Assembly: GCA_951406725.2 (NCBI GenBank) | Contig: OX597827.1 | Span: 78,244,001 to 78,308,000, forward strand | DNA from: Octopus vulgaris | Lineage: Eukaryota | Direction: 5' to 3' | DNA length: 64,000 nt | Shown: piece after piece, positions 1,296 to 24,587 of the stretch | Numbering within the stretch: the first letter of the stretch is position 1 | Layout: every line of letters starts with the position of its first letter | The notes under the pieces: model-generated | The model's input: the letters and a program-made list of their open reading frames with translations, nothing else | What the model was told of the DNA's origin: nothing | Database searches by the model: none | Translations under genes and position numbers: made by a program

Positions 1296-1456
1296 GTCAT
1301 GCTCTGTTTAGCTTGATATGAGGTCACCATGTCTTTCACATTTGGATGTGATGCATGTGTCTGGTGTACCCTTATCAGACGGGTAGTAACTATGGGTATA
1401 TTGGGCTTTGTATATTTGTAACCCAGCATCACTTTGATGGCATGTATCGCTATCTT
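1296..1456 (-). mobile_element. Fragment of interspersed repeat family G, embedded in (AAT)n
   Basis: Reverse-complement match to 43520-43680 (CCCGTCTGATAAGGGTACA core); flanked by (AAT)n/(AAC)n. Confidence 0.85.
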
Positions 1457-2495
1457 AACAACAACAACAACAATAATAATAATAATGATGATGATGCTTG
1501 AGATTGTATTGCTGTGTAATCTTGAGAAACCTCAAAATGTGTAGTTTTATGTCGTTGGTGGTTGTGGGGGTTCACTGTTAACGTCGACAGTAACTTTGGT
1601 GTAGTGTGGCTGTTGGAGACTAGGTAGAAGCCTTTGGGAGTAGTTGTAGAGATCACAGGCATAGTGTTGGTTGTCAGCACTCCAAGCAAGGCAACTATTT
1701 CACATACCCCCCCACCCCCAACAAGCCATGGCCCATCACTACTTTCATTATTTTCTTTTTGTTTTGAAATCTTGCACCCTCAGGGCCACTGTCCCCTGTG
1801 GGTGCACCCATGCTACATCACTGGTATAAATGTCAATGACCCTTAATAAAACCAGCGATCGGATCTTTCACAAATCCATTCTGACTTTAGTATGACTGCT
1901 CATTAACAGCTGATAACTCACTATGAAGTGCAGTCTTTTAATTAATTAACATTGCATTAGTTTATTATGTTTCGGCCATTGATCAATAATGAGTTTTAGG
2001 TTGAAATGTAGTTTGAGTCATCAGTTTGTCAGCTTTTAAAGTGTTTGTGGTTCTTAAGTTATGGTCTAATGCCTATTTCTTTTGTCCATTGTAAACTTCC
2101 ACCTGACCCTCCACCCTCATGACAGAGGACAGTCCAGTGTAAAATGTTAGTAACGAGCTTTTGTTACTGCATCCAGCTAGCCTTTACTCAACAACCACTA
2201 TAATTACTAACCCTACCATAGAATCTTCTAGTAATGCTACAACGTCCCCTGTTGAACAAACAAGTTGTTTACCAAACCTGTTTGAGGCCCCCAGCTCACC
2301 TCACTCGCTGCTCCCTACTAAACCACAGATCCTTTTCCCATTCCTCTCTCCACAATTATAACTCTGTAACTCCCTCTTAGTCTTCCCCTATTTCCTCCCT
2401 ACAAATGTCAGCCTTACTGGTCTGGGAACGCCTGCAAGGGGCTCTGCCCATCAACCCACTTCTGAGGACTAAGTAGTCAAAAGAAAAAAGCAATT

Positions 2496-2790
2496 TCTTA
2501 CCCCCATCGTTTTACGTTCTTCTAGAATGGTCTGCAACTTCCCAAACAATTTCGGCCAATTCATTGATCTCTCTTTCACGCATGTTTCTGGAATCCTGCC
2601 AACGCCATCGTGAGAGTCGCAAAGATGTTAAGTGCTTCATAGATCAATTGAAATCATTAAACTCTTTCTCTCCATAAACAAACCTAATCATATGCAAATC
2701 AGTTGTCACAGCCTCTCTGTTGGCCAATGGAAATGAAATGTGTGTAGATACATAATATGAAATGTGGAGAATTCCGGAAAGCAGCTGACT
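2496..2790 (-). promoter_or_regulatory. Candidate promoter and first exon of a minus-strand gene extending off the left edge
   Basis: Minus-strand ATG GGG|GTAAGA donor (GT at 2501-2500) in unique sequence with some CpGs; octamer ATGCAAAT 2692-2699, CCAAT 2724-2728, TTCCGGAA 2772-2779. Confidence 0.35.
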
Positions 2791-2857
2791 ATCAAAAAAC
2801 AAGTTAACTCAGTTTCCATATAGTAAGAATTTAATATTGTATCTACCTACAAATATA

Positions 2858-3228
2858 GGCACAGGTGTGTCTCTGGTAACCACCTGGTTCTGGGTTCAGT
2901 CCCACTGTGTGGCACTGTCTTCTACTAAAGCCTTGGGCCAACAAAAGCTCTCCTACCCTGATGTAATCTCCAGGGATAAAAGCATCCAGCAACAGGACCT
3001 CCGTAATGCCATGATGGACCGTGAAGTCTGGCGTAGCATGGTAAATTCCATTGTCTCGACCACGGTCAAACAATGATGATGATGATGATGTGAATGGATT
3101 TGGTAGATGGAAACTGAAAGAAACTTGTATATAAGATATATATGTATATAAATAATTACTGGGGTTGATTCATTCAACTAAAAATTGCTCCAGCATGGCT
3201 GCAGGCTAACTGAAAAAAGTAAAAGAGA
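2858..3228 (+). mobile_element. Degenerate tRNA-derived SINE family A, interrupted by an RTE fragment
   Basis: GGTTCTGGGTTCAGTCCCACTG head and GCTCCAGCATGGCTGCAG...ACTGAAAAAAGTAAAAGA tail match 22259-22680. Confidence 0.85.
2943..3090 (+). mobile_element. 5'-truncated RTE-clade LINE 3' end with (TGA)n tail
   Basis: Translates KLSYPDVISRDKSIQQQDLRNAMMDREVWRSMVNSIV, matching the RTE-type C-terminal AM.DR..WR motif, then TGATGATGA. Confidence 0.8.
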
Positions 3229-5642
3229 AATACCTTTAAGTCGTTTCCACATAACCCCTGCCCCATTTTTAAGAGGATTCACTTTGATACTAAACTCCCT
3301 TACACATTCCATATTTGTCCACAGTCCTTCACTGGTGTCTGTACTCTGAACAGTGAAGTACGCTACACTATATAAGATAATCAGAGACGGAAGAATGCTG
3401 AGGGTGTCCATGACCTTTGCAGGCCTTGACCAGGCTGGTGAGATTGATGGGGGTTGGAGAGGTGTAGGAAAAACAAAGACAGAGAAAGGGATTCTAGTGG
3501 GATGCAGTTCTGGGAAGGAACGGACTGGCTTACACATTTTGATCATTACAAAGTGTTAACTATGCATTAATATATGTATGTGCGTGTGTGTATGTATGTA
3601 TGTATATACATACACGTGTATACACATATCGGCAGTGAATTGGTAGATCCCCAGACTAAACCCTTTCCTATTATTTAGTTACTTTCCTTTACATTCTGAG
3701 TTCAAATTTCAGGAAAAAATTCAATAAAATATATCACTTATGACCTTGGCCAAACTCAAACCCACAACACTGAGGCTAAATTTTTTATAGTTGGTCATTG
3801 AGGGAGGTGGGGTCATTGACAATGACCTTTCACCTTCCAAACTGACCATAGGTTGGAAAGAACACTAAGCCATCTGGTCTGGAAAACTACATCAGATTAA
3901 ATCAGATTTTCACTGAAAATATTAAATTAATTACCAGTTATATACTGGGGTGATTTACATCAATTATGTCTTCCCCTCCTCCAGCAAAATCAGTGGCCTT
4001 GTGCCAAATTTTTTCATTATCATTGTTAGTATTATTTGTATTGTTTTTTAAGGCAGCAATCTGCTAAAACCGTTGGCCTGTCGGACAGTCATCAAATACT
4101 GGTGCCAGTCTAATTGACGGACCCCTTCCCCTAAACTTGCTGCTCTTCTGCCAAAATCTGAAACCCTTCTAAGGCAGTGAGCTTAGTGGCCTTTCTTCCT
4201 GGTCCTTTACGTTCGGAGCACAAATCCTGCTTTAGTCAACTTTATTTTTCATTCTTTCAGGTGTGATAAAATAATTCCCAGTTTGGTCCTGGGGTCAGTG
4301 TAATCAATCCCTCCCCCCACCTCCTCAAAATTGCTGACCCTGTGCCAAAATTAGAAAGAATTATTATGATGATGATGATGATGGCATGGCAGAATTGATA
4401 AATTGTTAGACAGATGCCTTACAATATTTCGTGGCATCAGTTTAGATTGTCAGTTCAAATCCTGCTTGGGCCATCTTCACTTTTCATTCATCCTGGGTTG
4501 ATAATTCAAAGAATCAGTCAACTTCCAAAGTGGATTAACTCAGCAACACTTAGTGCTAAACCCAGAAATCAATTAATTATGCAAATAATCCTGATTATTT
4601 CTTGCATATGGAGGAACATGTTAAGTTCTTGACAAATATGCAAACAGGCTTCAATTCTCATTGCAGCCTTTTCAATTTAGGGATCTCTCTAAAACCCTGA
4701 AACCTTAGACGCTTAAACGTCCTCCTCCTTCCCAAAGGGTTTCTCAACTGGTTTCTTATCATCGGTCATTCAGGTTAACTGAATATTTTCAAGGACCACT
4801 TGAGTGTAAAAACTAAGGAGATTCGAATAAAAATTAAAGAAAACAAAATCAATTAAACATCGTTTAACGCAGTCTGATGGCGGACAGGATAATGAAATAT
4901 ATGAATGCAATAACAAAGTTTTAAAAAATCTTCATGCCACAGAAGATTTGTCTGTAGACCACTGATGGGGTCGTTGATGACATTATTATTATTATTAAGG
5001 TGGTGAGCTGGCAGAATCCATAGTGCACTAGGCACTGAGTTCAAATTCTGCCAAGGTCGATTTTGCCTTTTGCCCTTTTGGGGTTAATGAAGGAAGTACT
5101 TGTAGAGCACTGAGACAGCTAGCCCCTCCCCCTCAAAACTGCCGGCCTTGTGCCAAAATTGGAGAGAAAGGGCCAATAATAATTGTAAAAAAAAACAACA
5201 AAGGGGTGATTTCTCATAAGGCCACAAATCTTAAAAGGAATGTGTGTCTGTGGGGGGGGGGACTTGACTGGTTCATATTTTATCAGCTTTGAAATAATGA
5301 AAAACTGAGTTGTCCTTAGCCTGATTTGAACTCAGAACCTAAAGGGACACAACTGAATACCAAAGACAACTTAGTCTGGCATCCCAATTGTTGCTGCCAC
5401 AACACAACTTAATGATTTATCGATGATTTAAAAAATTGTTTAAAACGACCAGCTTGAAAATATAAAATATATTTTATATTTGTTTTACACCAACTTCAAA
5501 GCAGAAAGTCTAGCACCAAGAATTCTCATACTATCTCCTTGGTCCTTAAATATTCCCATTTCCAAAAGCACTGCTGCTATTTAATACATGTGGCTTTTAT
5601 ATATATATAAATACATGTATATAGGCACACATCCGTCTGCGT

Positions 5643-6285: not shown

Positions 6286-6790
6286 TGTGTGTGTTCAGAT
6301 ATGTATGGTATGTTTTCAATAGTCCAGGGATAGAAACCTACAAATGAGAGCCAGCGTTTTACCTTTGATCCCTCTCCAGTTTGTTGACGTCTCTCAGAGA
6401 CATCACTGTCCTGAACCCACAATAACCTCCCCCCCCCCCCACATCTACCACAGTCATTTGGGCTAATGACTCGTTAACTAAATTTACTTATAAACTAATT
6501 AAGTCCACCAACTGATTTTATTTATTGCTCTTGCATCATAAACATGTATATGTATGTGTGTGTAATATATATATATATTTACATATTTGATGCCAAGCAA
6601 AGCTAGAGTCCAACAACTGAATGTATAAGAACATATGTATGTGTCTATGTATATATATATATATATATCAAGTAAAGGTGATAAACCTCATTAAGGGATC
6701 ATAAATCCAATGAAAATACTGGTTAGTTACCAATCCACAGAAAGTTCAACTATAAGGTAACCATATAAACTGTAGTTCATATGTTTATAT

Positions 6791-7013
6791 ATTTAAAGAA
6801 TAAAGGAGAAAATGGATCTGTTATCTCAAAATGTATTTCTCATCAGTATATCCTTACTACCTCTGAAGAGATTCATCATATGATGATTTTAATTTTATGC
6901 TTTAATTATCTAAAGATTTCTGAATCGAAACAGCTGTCAGAGATGCTGTCAAATTTTATAATTAATAAATAATTTTATTAATTATCTCTCCATTTTCTCC
7001 TTATTCTTTAAAT
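6791..7013 (+). mobile_element. Penelope-type non-autonomous element with inverted termini and a minimal type I hammerhead motif
   Basis: Inverted ends 6791-6816 / 6989-7013; CTGAAGA 6863-6869; stem II GATTCA/TGAATC; GAAA-C-AGCT-G-TC 6927-6938; AATAAA 6964-6969; flanked by (TA)n. Confidence 0.7.
6861..6945 (+). ncRNA. Hammerhead ribozyme motif (type I, minimal stem III); stem I eroded
   Basis: Complete CUGANGA / GAAA / GUC core in correct order with a 6-bp stem II and palindromic AGCT stem III; only 2-3 bp of stem I remain. Confidence 0.6.
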
Positions 7014-7831
7014 TTATGTATATATATAAAACCATACACACACACACACACACATACACATATATATATATATATACACACACACACATATATATATACA
7101 CAAGTATATATTATATAAAAAATATATACAGGCACACACACACACACGTTTATATATATCTGCAATTGTGTGTGGGTATATCCGTATACACACATGTACA
7201 CATCCTCTCACATATTGTGTGTGTAATATTAAAAGAGGTAAAATAACAAAACCATGAAAATGGTATTGCTACTCTTCCCTTCCTCCCTCCTTTTTGCGGC
7301 CCCTGCTCCCCTCAAAACCCCAAGAAACTGTATCTGAAAGAATAGACAACCAGTTTGAAGTCTGTCATCCTCTCCAAACATGCCCCACACATGAAATGAA
7401 ACTGTTTGGACAAACATAAAAAGTATCTTTTAACTTTTGATTTGTATGGCGGTGTCACGTCACAACCCCTCATTCTTTAAAGGTGAAGTATGCTAAATAA
7501 AGAGAACAAACACATCTAGCTTCTTGTCTGTCTTTCTTCACTAAAATACATCGTGGGGGGGGGGCATGGCCAGGGCTTTGGTCATTGTTGTTTTTTTTTT
7601 TGCATGTGTTTGTTTTACACAGGTTCAGGCTATGGCTGTGTGGTTAAGAAGTTTGCTCCCCAACCTTGTGGTCTCAGGTTCAGTCCCACTGAGTCGTACC
7701 TTGGCCATGTGCTTTCTATAGTTCCAGAAATACTAAAGCCTTGTCAGTTGATCTGGTAAATGGAAACCGAAAGAAGCCCATCTTATTTATAAATGTATGT
7801 ATGTATGTATATATACAATATCTATACATAT

Positions 7832-8003
7832 ACAGGGTGTGGTGAATAGACTGTCATCTAAACTACACAAAAATGAAAATAACACTGACATCTCATTTGA
7901 AATACTAAAGAGTAAATTTATTCAATAAAATCGCCATTGGATCAATTACAGCCTCAAGATGACTTCAGAATCTCCTGCAACTCTTCTGGACAGTCTCCTT
8001 GGC
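7832..8003 (-). mobile_element. Tc1/mariner-superfamily transposon end remnant
   Basis: TA-CAGGGTG terminus; minus strand translates KETVQKSCRRF*SHLEAVID..GDFIE*, typical of Tc1/mariner transposase C-termini. Confidence 0.7.
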
Positions 8004-8075
8004 TGTATGTAGCTGGGGGTGGGGCACAATGAGTAATATTTACACCTTTTATGAATATGAGAAGAGAAATATATT

Positions 8076-8313
8076 ACAGTTCTATATTTAAGAGATGAGG
8101 AATTATTTACATTTGACGGATATTTGTCCTCATCTTGTTTGTTGATGTACCCTCCAGCCGTCATCAGATGTCTTGGGGAATTTTCGAACCTGGGTTCTCA
8201 TTCCTAAGGTATTTTTCGATGTTGTTGCTATTATTATTATTCAGGTCATTGCCTGGAATCGAACTCAGAATTTTGGGGTTGGTAGCCCATGCTCTTAACC
8301 ACTACACCATATG
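8076..8313 (-). mobile_element. tRNA-headed SINE carrying the 5' half of a hammerhead core
   Basis: Minus-strand A box TGGTGTAGTGG (8309-8299), B box GAGTTCGATTCC (8266-8255), (AAT)n spacer, then AAGACAT-CTGATGA-CGGCTG (core at 8167-8161). Confidence 0.75.
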
Positions 8314-8597
8314 TTCAATAGCTTGCAGAACACTATTTCAGAAAATTATCTTTCTCTTTGAGCATAAGAAAGACAAATTTAGTTGACTAAACCAAGATAA
8401 GGTTAGTTTTCCTCTCTCCAGAATTACATTTGAAAACAGACTCATACACATCAAAATCCATCCTTAAACATCACAGAAACCAGAAATGTTCAAACATCTA
8501 GATCAAATGAAAGAGGATCATGGCAAAATAGCACATGACAGGAAATATTCTCAATAGCATTTTCAAGATCTTCTTGATATATTTATGCACCATGTTG

Positions 8598-8815
8598 TTA
8601 ACCCTTTTGTTACTGTATTTATTTTGAGATGCACCGTGTTTCTTTCAATTATTTTAAATATAACAAATAATTTAGTAAAACAACTTAGTTAACATTAAGC
8701 TAGTGTTTGGAACATAAATTGTGACTAAGGCTTGGTGGAATATTTTAATTCCAAACGTATGAAAACAAGACATTTTACCACAGAGCCAGAGCCGGGTTAG
8801 TAACAAAAAGGTTAA
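8598..8815. mobile_element. piggyBac-like MITE
   Basis: TTAA-CCCTTTTGTTAC ... GTAACAAAAAGG-TTAA: terminal inverted repeats with TTAA target duplication. Related internal sequence at about 19240-19600, 21250-21390, 40640-40900 and 52335-52530. Confidence 0.8.
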
Positions 8816-10682: not shown

Positions 10683-11312
10683 TTAAGATTTCTGTGAAGA
10701 AGAATGTTCGATTTTATGAGCAAACACAGAACTCTTGAGATAAAATCTTTGATGACAAAGCTCACACGAAAGCTGACGGCTGTTCTTGTGCCAGCGTTTA
10801 TGGACAAAGAAAGCACCTTTGGAGTAGAAATTCTTGCCACAGGTTTCGCATCTAAAGAGCCTTTCAACGTTTGCCATTTTATGTAATTTCTGGTGCTGCC
10901 AAAGTTGAGCTTTAAGTGTAAACTTCATCTCACATTTATTACACTCAAATGGTTTCACACAAAGCATGAAAAACTCGTGGGTTTTCAGACTGGAAAAGTC
11001 AGAGAAGAATTTTTTACAGAGAAAACAGTTGGGTTCCGTGAGGTTGGTGTGGGAGGAAGAATGTCTGTGTAAGAGTGTTTTGGTAGGGAACTGAGTAAAG
11101 CAGCTTGGACATGTATACGGCTTTAGTGCGAAATGGACTTTTTTATGTAAGTTTAAAGTAGTGCGGAGATGAAACCTTCGATGGCAGATTGAACAATTGA
11201 GCTTCTTCATTGGCCAATAAGACGGACTTTCACAATCAAAGGTTAAGGAAACAATCTCTTTGTCCTTCTTGTAAACAACTCTCTGTTGACTTGTCAAAGC
11301 CATATCAGACAT
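10683..11312 (-). CDS. C2H2 zinc-finger protein, 209 aa, six fingers (third is C2HC-like/degenerate)
   Basis: CSIC..H..H, CPSC, CFLC, CNKC, CETC and CELC fingers; in-frame TAA nine codons upstream of the ATG; minus-strand AATAAA at 10647-10642; candidate acceptor TTTTCCAG ending at 11672 and upstream donor CAG|GTAAAC at 15037/15036. Confidence 0.9.
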   Translation of the reverse strand: MSDMALTSQQRVVYKKDKEIVSLTFDCESPSYWPMKKLNCSICHRRFHLRTTLNLHKKVHFALKPYTCPSCFTQFPTKTLLHRHSSSHTNLTEPNCFLCKKFFSDFSSLKTHEFFMLCVKPFECNKCEMKFTLKAQLWQHQKLHKMANVERLFRCETCGKNFYSKGAFFVHKRWHKNSRQLSCELCHQRFYLKSSVFAHKIEHSSSQKS

Positions 11313-11744
11313 GTAGCTATCAAGGTTTTCCCTGAATTAATGACAAATATTTGTTGATTTCGACTTTATAAAACAGTTGAGTTTTTGGTTCAAATAATTA
11401 TTACCAATATTTTGATTCTTGTTCTTCACTTCTGGAGGAATGAGGTAATTATATCTGATGTTAAAAGGTTTTCACAAAATATTCAGTGTATAAACAGAGA
11501 AAATGCTTCCTGCAGGACAAATAATTGCCGTTTGGTTGTAGACTTTTCCCTGTTGGAAGCATTTGTCAAAACGCAGATTCATTAAATACTTCCATTGAAT
11601 ACAGCAAGAGTTTCTTTGGGTGTTGGAGGCCCGGAGAAGACTGAAGTGATGGTAGTTGGCAGGGAAATCAGCTGGAAAATAGAATTAAATACAGTAGTGC
11701 CTTGGTTTTCGAACAACTCTGATTGTGAATAAATCGTTCTTTAT

Positions 11745-22680: not shown

Positions 22681-22959
22681 TAAACTACAGAAATTGATCA
22701 CCTTCTTCGAAAGGAATAAACAGAAATCCATAATCTGGTTTTCTGTTCTAGTTTAAGTGTTTGAACCTGACAAGAAACAGCAAAATCCTATTCCAAAGTT
22801 TATTCTTTCTATTACACTCCCCCACCACCACCACCAACACAAACTAACATTGCTATTGTTGTTGTGCCCTAGAATTAGTTTCGGCCCCTTAGGTATGTGA
22901 TCAAAAACATTCTAGCCATGACCAACCATTACATCATTTTTGTATATTAGAGACTACAC

Positions 22960-24304
22960 AGTGGAGGCGCATGGCCTAGTGGTTAGAGCAGAGTGGGGGC
23001 ACATGGCCTAGTGGTTAGAGCAGAGTGGGGGCACATGGCCTAGTGGTTAGAGCAGAGTGGGGGCACATGGCCTAGTGGTTAGAGCAGAGTGGGGGCACAT
23101 GGCCTAGTGGTTAGAGTAGAGTGGGGGCACATGACCTAGTGGTTAGAGCAGAGTGGGGGCACATGGCCTAGTGGTTAGAGCAGAGTGGGGGCACATGGCC
23201 TAGTGGTTAGAGCAGAGTAGGGGCACATGGCCTAGTGGTTAGAGCAGAGTGGGAGCACATGGCCTAGTGGTTAGAGCAGAGTGGGGGCACATGGCCTAGT
23301 GGTTAGAGCAGAGTGGGGGCACATGGCCTAGTGGTTAGAGCACAGTGGAGGCACATGGCCTAGTGGTTAGAGCAGAGTGGGGGCACATGGCCTAGTGGTT
23401 AGAGCAGAGTGGAGGCACATGGCCTAGTGGTTAGAGCAGAGTGGGGGCACATGGCCTAGTGGTTAGAGCACAGTGGGGGCACATGGCCTAGTGGTTAGAG
23501 CAGAGTGGGGGCACATGGCCTAGTGGTTAGAGCAGAGTGGAGGCACATGGCCTAGTGGTTAGAGCACAGTGGGGGCACATGGCCTAGTGGTTAGAGCAGA
23601 GTGGAGGCACATGGCCTAGTGGTTAGAGCAGAGTGGGGGCACATGGCCTAGTGGTTAGAGCACAGTGGGGGCACATGGCCTAGTGGTTAGAGCAGAGTGG
23701 GGTCACATGGCCTAGTGGTTAGAGCAGAGTGGAGGCACATGGCCTAGTGGTTAGAGCAGAGTGGGGGCACATGGCCTAGTGGTTAGAGCAGAGTGGGGGC
23801 ACATGGCCTAGTGGTTAGAGCAGAGTGGGGGCACATGGCCTAGTGGTTAGAGCAGAGTGGAGGCACATGGCCTAGTGGTTAGAGCAGAGTGGAGGCACAT
23901 GGCCTAGTGGTTAGAGCACAGTGGGGGCACATGGCCTAGTGGTTAGAGCAGAGTGGGGGCACATGGCCTAGTGGTTAGAGCACAGTGGAGGCACATGGCC
24001 TAGTGGTTAGAGCACAGTGGGGGCACATGGCCTAGTGGTTAGAGCAGAGTGGAGGCACATGGCCTAGTGGTTAGAGCAGAGTGGGGGCACATGGCCTAGT
24101 GGTTAGAGCAGAGTGGAGGCACATGGCCTAGTGGTTAGAGCAGAGTGGGGTCACATGGCCTAGTGGTTAGAGCAGAGTGGGGGCACATGGCCTAGTGGTT
24201 AGAGCAGAGTGGAGGCACATGGCCTAGTGGTTAGAGCAGAGTGGGGGCACATGGCCTAGTGGTTAGAGCAGAGTGGAGGCACATGGCCTAGTGGTTAGAG
24301 CAGC
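22960..24304 (+). repeat. 32-bp minisatellite (about 42 units) made of a SINE 5' head
   Basis: Unit (G/C)AGTGG(G/A)GGCACATGGCCTAGTGGTTAGAGCA, continuous with the SINE body at 24305. Confidence 0.98.
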
Positions 24305-24587
24305 GGTTTCACGGTCGAGGGATCGCAGGTTCGAATCTCAGACCGGGCGATGTGTGTGTTTATGAGTGAAACACCTAAGCTCCACGTGGCGCCGACAGAA
24401 GGTAATGGTGAACTTCTGCTAACTCATTCGCCACAACTTTCTCTCACTCTTTCCTCCTGCATCTTGCAGCTCACCTGCGACAGACCAGCGTCCCGTCCAG
24501 GTGGGGAAACTATATGCCAAGGAAACCGGGAAACCAGCCCTTATGAGCCAGGCAGGGCTCGAGAAGGAACAAACAACAACAACAACA
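22961..24587 (+). mobile_element. tRNA-derived SINE family D1 with amplified head
   Basis: B box GGTTCGAATCT near 24328; V-domain-like CCTGCGACAGACCAGCGTCCCGTCCAGG; (AAC)n tail; imperfect duplication AGAGACTACACA / AGGGGCTACACA. Confidence 0.92.

Follow-up and report, generated by a model that had tools for sequence, protein, structure and literature searches.

Positions 6668-7013 of the window, i.e., of the whole 64-kb stretch of Octopus vulgaris DNA that was analyzed, are read here as an insertion derived from a Penelope-like element (PLE) that is likely a member of the Hydra clade; it consists of pLTR and tail, is truncated at the 5′ end, and is partly inverted. Its hammerhead is of the minimal type I, has a 57-nt helix II, is predicted to cut only as a dimer, and is likely a weak cutter. 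We assign this reading a probability of roughly 0.86. The PLE-type anatomy of the family, with its two arms, two fixed 3′ ends, and (TA)n targets, was observed directly in the copies, and so was the physical link of the arm and tail to a broken RT-GIY-YIG gene. The window copy is ordinary repeat debris, and its family context is the useful part.

Anatomy of the Insertion

The features of the insertion are listed in Table 1. The first-pass annotation had placed the limits of the element at 6791 and 7013 and had described a self-contained, non-autonomous element of 220 bp with inverted ends of 25 bp. The letters of these ends were described correctly: the stretches 6791-6815 and 6990-7013 (25 and 24 nt) are near-perfect inverted copies of each other, with one bulged A. 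They are not terminal inverted repeats, however; the left and right "inverted ends" represent the same element end twice. The limits had to be moved as well, since family sequence continues to the left of 6791 as an inverted segment of ~125 nt, which ends in (TA)n at ~6668. In the window copy, the minus strand carries the tail and a stub of 23 nt, to which a forward arm of 196 nt is attached. What had been taken for a self-contained element is, in the reading preferred here, a truncated and partly inverted piece, pLTR plus tail, of a full-length Hydra-type PLE. The Jukes-Cantor (JC) distance of the window copy to the column majority is 0.064 and the family median is 0.054; the family is thus an old one.

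Table 1. Features of the insertion and its flanks, in window coordinates.
Positions	Strand	Feature	Basis
6650-6668	.	(TA)n target, left flank; target-site duplication not readable	Sequence
6668-6793	-	PLE tail of ~125 nt, inverted; in the long copy L117 located between pLTR and ORF start	Family alignments
6794-6816	-	Inverted-arm stub, the terminal ~23 nt of the pLTR; responsible for the apparent left terminal inverted repeat	
6818-7013	+	Forward pLTR arm, 196 nt, ending at the short 3′ end of the family	
6839-6846	-	Spurious second core, not a family feature	Column check
6848-6853	+	Possible distal strand of helix I; candidate partner 6941-6946, beyond a 7-nt bulge	Predicted folds
6861-6862	+	Helix I 5′ strand, 2 bp with 6939-6940	Columns, descriptor, covariation
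6863-6869	+	Hammerhead core CUGANGA	Sister columns (majority letter in 40-48 of 48 copies)
6870-6926	+	Long helix II: six closing pairs, 57-nt spacer, predicted interrupted stem	
6927-6938	+	GAAA, self-complementary helix III (6930-6937), UC; predicted cut after 6938	
6954-6985	+	AT-rich hairpin holding AATAAA	
7014-7030	.	Right flank: (TA)n, then (CA)n	Sequence

Copies of the Family and Their Ends

A search of the genome yielded 692 first-look candidates, 40 of which were scored, and the main matches were 82-91% identical. An exact 21-mer of the tail occurs 25 times in the genome, and the copy number of the family is estimated to lie in the low hundreds. At the 3′ side, copies stop at one of two fixed ends, located either where the arm ends (short end) or after the tail (long end). 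Both run into TA or CA repeats, and not into poly(A) in the copies that were inspected. The 5′ ends vary among copies. Preferential insertion into (TA)n, 5′ truncation of the pLTR, inverted copies, and a one-sided tail were all found, as in PLEs. Among 45 tail-anchored matches, which were drawn from 55 loci selected by their tail and include one insertion counted twice, an inverted partner adjoins in 27, and 23 of these partners stop at the short end; a nearby inverted partner is absent in the remaining 18.

The 5′ ends are not distributed evenly. Of 67 arms, 12 begin at the A of the motif TCAGTT, in a 6-nt window ~60-61 nt upstream of the core, a clustering that was matched in none of 20,000 uniform draws; these 12 arms represent 10 insertions, at least one of which (L057) looks like a chance extension. 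Only seven arms reach upstream of this cluster, and 51 of the 67 ends are scattered further downstream. No enrichment was found at the predicted cut site, with 4 of 67 ends located within 5 nt of it (4 of 71 breakpoints in another count). TCAGTT at the cluster is Initiator-like in that it fits the consensus known from Drosophila, and in related groups, several truncated copies have TCAGT or TCATT close to their 5′ ends, as judged by eye. A palindrome, GTTAAC, also sits at the cluster and could be an alternative cause of it, via inversion joints or alignment starts. The forward arm of the window copy begins ~17-19 nt downstream of the putative transcription start.

The Hammerhead Motif

The core letters CTGAAGA (6863-6869, plus strand, confirmed by sequence and column check), the strands GATTCA (6870-6875) and TGAATC (6921-6926), which close helix II with six pairs, the segment GAAA-CAGCTG-TC (6927-6938), and AATAAA (6964-6969) are all exactly where the first-pass annotation had put them. 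CUGANGA, GAAA, and UH follow each other in the order of a minimal type I hammerhead, and the G10.1-C11.1 pair is present. When the descriptor check that had been proposed was run, a loose type I descriptor matched only once on both strands of the 64-kb window, i.e., at 6863-6938, and at least one match was obtained in 2 of 100 dinucleotide-preserving shuffles of the window (mean 0.02), so that the match exceeds what chance would give. The covariance-model check proposed alongside it was less favorable, as a search of the window copy with Rfam gave no hammerhead match. Of 19 sister copies, a single one reached 19.8 bits with Hammerhead_1, with 43 nt inserted in loop 2, where the cut-off of the model is 34 bits.

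At the level of the family, the core is well-preserved. In 48 other copies spanning the motif, the core letter of the window copy is retained in 39-48 copies per column, the lowest value being found at a CpG site, and the core is thus the majority state. The earlier identification was thus right: the motif is a type I hammerhead of the minimal kind known from PLEs, and its helix III is palindromic. The family consensus on which that identification was to be checked has kept the core but has a helix I of just 2 bp. The short helix I had been regarded as a sign that this particular copy may be inactive. A weak copy is indeed likely from the fold predictions discussed below, but copy-specific decay is not the explanation: because 2 bp is the majority state of the sister copies, the short helix I is inherited from the master element. 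An additional helix I of 6 bp after a 7-nt bulge is predicted in two sister copies; positions 6853 and 6946 weaken it in the window copy, and no compensatory changes in its distal strand were seen among the sister columns.

A second core, pointing the other way on the minus strand, had also been noticed. Its letters are present at 6846-6839, but it requires C6841, which occurs in none of the 48 sisters (47 have A and one has a gap), and no helix II follows it. It was rejected as a feature of the family.

Predicted Folding

The eight letters of helix III are predicted to self-pair at -11.1 kcal/mol. In the window family, the core can also pair with the cut site, resulting in a predicted off-fold, and the active fold of the monomer is predicted to lie 11 kcal/mol above it. 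In three family copies, the active dimer fold is predicted to be less stable than the best dimer by 7-11 kcal/mol per RNA; among them is the window copy, whose value is rough, as its constrained fold lost one pair. Because the active fold is predicted to be disfavored in all three copies, weak cutting is predicted as a trait of the family. The window copy, with a lone, weak motif that would depend on a dimer, is most likely inert. In three sister groups, the double hammerhead is the predicted energy minimum.

Long Helix II as a Feature of Many Hammerheads

A pattern describing the long-arm motif (core, 42-62-nt spacer, six-letter helix III with free middle) matched 7,317 times in the genome vs. 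nine times for the reversed control. By eye, helix III is a Watson-Crick palindrome in 83 of the first 100 matches listed, has TG in 15, and is neither in two. The TG either still pairs by G-U in the dimer or reflects CpG decay. In nine groups, 51 of 54 majority cells of helices I-III pair, with a shuffle mean of 26 and 51 being reached in none of 20,000 shuffles; the groups were defined by hand, are related, and were partly found by W/W or S/S patterns in helix III, and the shuffle figure is to be read as support and not as a probability. All four Watson-Crick palindromes are found in the middle of helix III across the groups, with three or four pair types per column. The helix II arm measures 50-63 nt in the long-arm set and 57 nt in the window copy. 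Two sister groups are tied to Hydra-like endonuclease sequence (L117, minus strand; L219 and L220).

Several members of this set were observed in other settings. An abundant family with a CATATG helix III (L117:5053, minus strand; L128-L154) often occurs as inverted pairs and lies ~580 nt downstream of a Hydra-like endonuclease; for this family, the structure of lowest energy is predicted to be the double hammerhead. At L221 (G000:C1:40931795-40938492), L135-L137, L150-L152, and L155-L157, units of 532-535 bp that lack an ORF and contain one long-arm hammerhead each are arranged in tandem. These 534-bp arrays have a CAATTG helix III and a 7-bp helix I, contain up to 13 units in a row plus one inverted unit, end at two sites in (TA)n, and can carry an inverted arm. 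Two neighboring units that were compared are 99% identical. In L141 and L152, the arrays begin exactly at the 5′ strand of helix I and not at the cut site. The CAATTG arrays are a good candidate for a retrozyme with circular RNA. In L191 and L192, the core deviates in that A9 is separated from the start of the long helix II by about five additional unpaired letters, and helix I barely pairs.

The Parent Element and Its Coding Region

In the long copy L117, ORF pieces (1374-4507), which are 36-70% identical to the intact L122 frame described below, come immediately after an inverted arm, a forward arm, and the tail; in L119, L120, and L121 an inverted arm lies beside ORF pieces. Longer copies have an AT-rich body upstream of the arm, which in L085 and L086 leads to a broken coding region; these two copies link the ORF to the AT-rich body that adjoins the arm in L031, an inverted pair that has no ORF. 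No intact full-length copy of the exact family of the window was found, and the path from pLTR to ORF was pieced together from L117, L085, L086, and L031.

The ORF pieces are 30-70% identical to the intact 955-aa frame of a sister family (L122) and contain RWK, DKT, the RT catalytic region, a CxCx5C linker, a GIY-YIG-type motif, CxxC, and CxH. RWK and DKT, in the N-terminus of the RT, are present in the pieces of L117; the linker as well as CxxC and CxH, around a conserved E and N, are found in L085, L117, L118, and L119. By these motifs and the homology to L122, an RT followed by GIY-YIG is encoded in one ORF linked to the repeat. A further trait of the Hydra clade is an endonuclease devoid of a CCHH zinc finger. 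In the endonuclease here, there is no CxxC between GIY and YIG; L122 has one Cys there, and the window family has two Cys ten residues apart. A search of a large protein set gave 51 homologs of 538-815 aa, and Pfam and PDB searches of the ORF gave no significant match, Pfam being blind to the RT. The parent of the window family is likely a Hydra-clade PLE, a membership that rests on motifs. The Neptune clade, a first guess from the cysteine linker, was dropped on published clade definitions.

The L122 family (L122:1914-4778; L123-L125) is a young Hydra-type family whose open frames reach 955 aa, comprise an RT and GIY-YIG, and contain Asn-rich insertions; its 3′ region is long and AT-rich. No hammerhead of this intact-ORF family was found within the 10-kb loci. 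A separate short-loop minimal hammerhead at L122:1696 (plus strand), ~220 nt upstream of the intact ORF and across a (TA)n, is probably another PLE end. L117 also contains a 415-codon helicase-like frame (7559-8803, minus strand), by eye of the Helitron kind.

Comparison with Known Elements

Hydra-clade PLEs are characterized by RWK, DKT, CxCx5C, CxxC, and CxH, by (TA)n targeting, and by canonical hammerheads, and truncated inverted copies are a known pattern of PLE insertion (Craig et al., 2021; PMC8557442). The window family resembles them, including Hydra-1_Obim, in the C-terminal GIY-YIG after the RT, in all of these protein motifs, in its (TA)n targets, in the sense-strand type I hammerhead near the 3′ end, and in the truncated inverted copies. 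There are differences too. In the published Hydra hammerheads, loop 2 is 3-10 nt long and helix I has at least 3 bp, as against a 57-nt helix II spacer and 2 bp in the window family, and the hammerhead of Hydra-1_Obim has a different sequence. Hydra elements are generally <3 kb, whereas in the window family the ORF region alone measures ~3 kb (~3.1 kb in L117) and is accompanied by a 2-3-kb AT-rich 3′ region. The PLE tail is quoted as 30-40 nt, compared to ~125 nt here (PMC8557442).

Minimal PLE hammerheads were reported to be inactive alone and to cut weakly as dimers (Cervera and De la Peña, 2014; PMC4209133). Those of Drosophila virilis Penelope and other PLEs share with the window family the type I core, G10.1-C11.1, a small palindromic helix III, and the dimer requirement, which is predicted here. 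Pairs on opposite strands 100-700 bp apart are described for them as in the window family, and the D. virilis motif likewise has a 2-bp helix I. Their helix II, however, has 6-8 bp preceded by an extra unpaired base, whereas the set described here has no extra base and an arm of 50-63 nt (PMC4209133). D. virilis Penelope also has an internal promoter in its pLTR (PMC2377424).

A long loop 2 is also found in the hammerheads of spike moss PLE-X1, two motifs of which have a loop 2 of 29-36 nt and are marked as non-canonical (PMC8557442, supplement). Unlike the window family, PLE-X1 is a plant element, EN-deficient, rDNA-targeted, and devoid of a palindromic 6-nt helix III. Searches of openly accessible papers (not of Repbase or Dfam) turned up no hammerhead with a long helix II in Hydra PLEs or cephalopods; examples may be present in the supplements to the hammerhead and retrozyme papers of 2014, 2020, and 2026. 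Thus, the long helix II has a precedent in PLEs but, as far as we found, has not been reported for Hydra elements.

Non-LTR retrozymes have a type I hammerhead in a low-GC repeat (Cervera and De la Peña, 2020; PMC7229834; Li et al., 2026, preprint), as is the case here. The sister CAATTG family, tandem and without ORF, fits this class, although its 534-bp units exceed the ~300 bp quoted for retrozymes (PMC7229834); the window family, which is dispersed and ORF-linked, does not. For Poseidon, a PLE of the green anole, reverse transcription was shown in vitro to begin at two sites inside the RNA, by which the tail is defined; mainly uncut RNA serves as template, and hammerhead cleavage needs protein (Frangieh et al., 2024; PMC11167929). 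Poseidon resembles the window family in the two 3′ ends defining a tail, in the position of the tail toward the ORF start, and in the uncut main template proposed here. It differs in belonging to another clade and in an ORF that begins inside the hammerhead.

A Proposed Model for the Origin of the Short Copies

The mRNA of the parent element would start at the Initiator-like site in the upstream pLTR and run through the ribozyme, the tail, and the ORF. The RT of the element may prime at nicked (TA)n DNA and begin copying inside the RNA at one of two sites, i.e., the end of the arm or the end of the tail. On the 5′ leader, the end of the RNA would limit copying to no more than ~220 or ~330 nt. 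Head-to-head joining of two of these short copies, one per start site, would then result in a palindrome-like insertion. Short copies would thus arise when the RT copies the leader of an mRNA that has not been cut and stops at the transcription start or before reaching it. As the cut site is contained in the forward arm, the template was presumably uncut RNA, and an origin in the mRNA leader is likely because the cluster of 5′ ends is located upstream of the core instead of at the cut site. The model also draws on the internal promoter of D. virilis Penelope and on the internal RT starts and uncut template of Poseidon. The function of the ribozyme would be one for the parent, likely the release of unit-length RNA from tandem transcripts via two paired helix III palindromes.

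Alternative Readings

Perhaps the copies belong to a separate, non-autonomous, retrozyme-like element of ~220-330 nt that borrows the PLE protein. Most copies are short, their 5′ ends cluster at one site, a true tandem and ORF-less hammerhead repeat of ~534 bp does exist in this genome, and a recent preprint argues for an origin of animal retrozymes from pLTRs (Li et al., 2026). Nevertheless, we consider such an element improbable. The window family is dispersed and not tandem, and no head-to-tail array of its arm was seen in the mapped loci; its copies run unbroken into the long 3′ region and adjoin the ORF; and most 5′ ends (the 51 of 67 mentioned above) lie scattered downstream of the cluster. 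A MITE with 25-bp terminal inverted repeats, in which the hammerhead letters would be incidental, could explain the long hairpin that the 223-nt stretch forms by pairing of its own ends (z -6). It was rejected and has very little left in its favor, as arm lengths vary, the tail is usually one-sided, fixed length, terminal inverted repeats, and target-site duplications were not found, 18 of the 45 tail-anchored matches lack an inverted partner nearby, and the linked protein is an RT-GIY-YIG protein and not a transposase. The warning in the first-pass annotation that this retroelement could be mistaken for a MITE was correct.

The Rfam model of U8 snoRNA (RF00096) matches 6840-6954 over its whole length with 22.6 bits (E 0.031), which raises the question of a divergent U8 gene or pseudogene. 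The score is below the 41-bit cut-off, however, none of 19 sister copies matches at E up to 10, and the U8-like letters are minority substitutions of the window copy (6841, 6845, 6853, 6878, and 6882). Since the substitutions concerned are private to the window copy, both the U8 likeness and the minus-strand second core are considered spurious, and a U8 origin, which was rejected, is the least credible of all readings. Finally, the window copy might have been co-opted for trimming the long 3′ UTR of a neighboring zinc-finger mRNA. It lies between two convergent C2H2 zinc-finger genes, of which the plus-strand one ends ~800 bp before the window, its core is intact, and a contig of a run with another organism label carries the stretch with one change. 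Yet, it is a lone copy without a dimer partner, its active fold is predicted to be disfavored, and an intact core is common among the sisters (19 distinct intact-core motifs were assigned to the window family). Co-option is thus very unlikely. The preferred reading remains a 5′-truncated, partly inverted insertion from a Hydra-type PLE.

Genomic Context of the Window Copy

The two convergent C2H2 genes are located at window positions 10683-11336 (minus strand) and at L217:7261-9198 (plus strand), the latter with a 646-codon frame and a long finger array. A tandem array with a 32-bp period and more than 40 copies, GC-rich and G-skewed, is found at window positions 22829-24400. In each of four runs that were guessed to be RNA, contigs span ~6678-7005 without interruption over the predicted cut site and include neighboring unique stretches; strand, ends, and level are not visible in contigs, which therefore carry no weight in the reading above. 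The contig with the other organism label contains the same insertion over 6678-7005 with one substitution (6941), and runs with two more labels contain about half or more of the words of 6678-7005.

Implications

A large set of hammerheads is missed by standard models because of the long arm. A tentative proposal, which we consider possible but rather doubtful, is that a helix II of 50-63 nt marks a distinct active sub-class of dimer-cutting hammerheads, common to several Hydra-type retrotransposons and their 534-nt retrozyme parasites. In such hammerheads, the long arm would be an RT docking site or a tertiary partner licensing cleavage, and the short copies would document, across the genome, where transcription starts and where the RT begins internally. 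If so, more than 7,000 long-arm copies in one genome would have been missed by Rfam and by short-loop descriptors.

Natural variants that are predicted to be strong (three groups) and weak (the window family) are available, which makes the role of PLE hammerheads testable side by side. The clustering of 5′ ends at a start-like site offers genomic support, from another clade, for the copying of uncut RNA from internal starts that was described in vitro. The uncut-leader model would also explain why such pieces are mistaken for MITEs.
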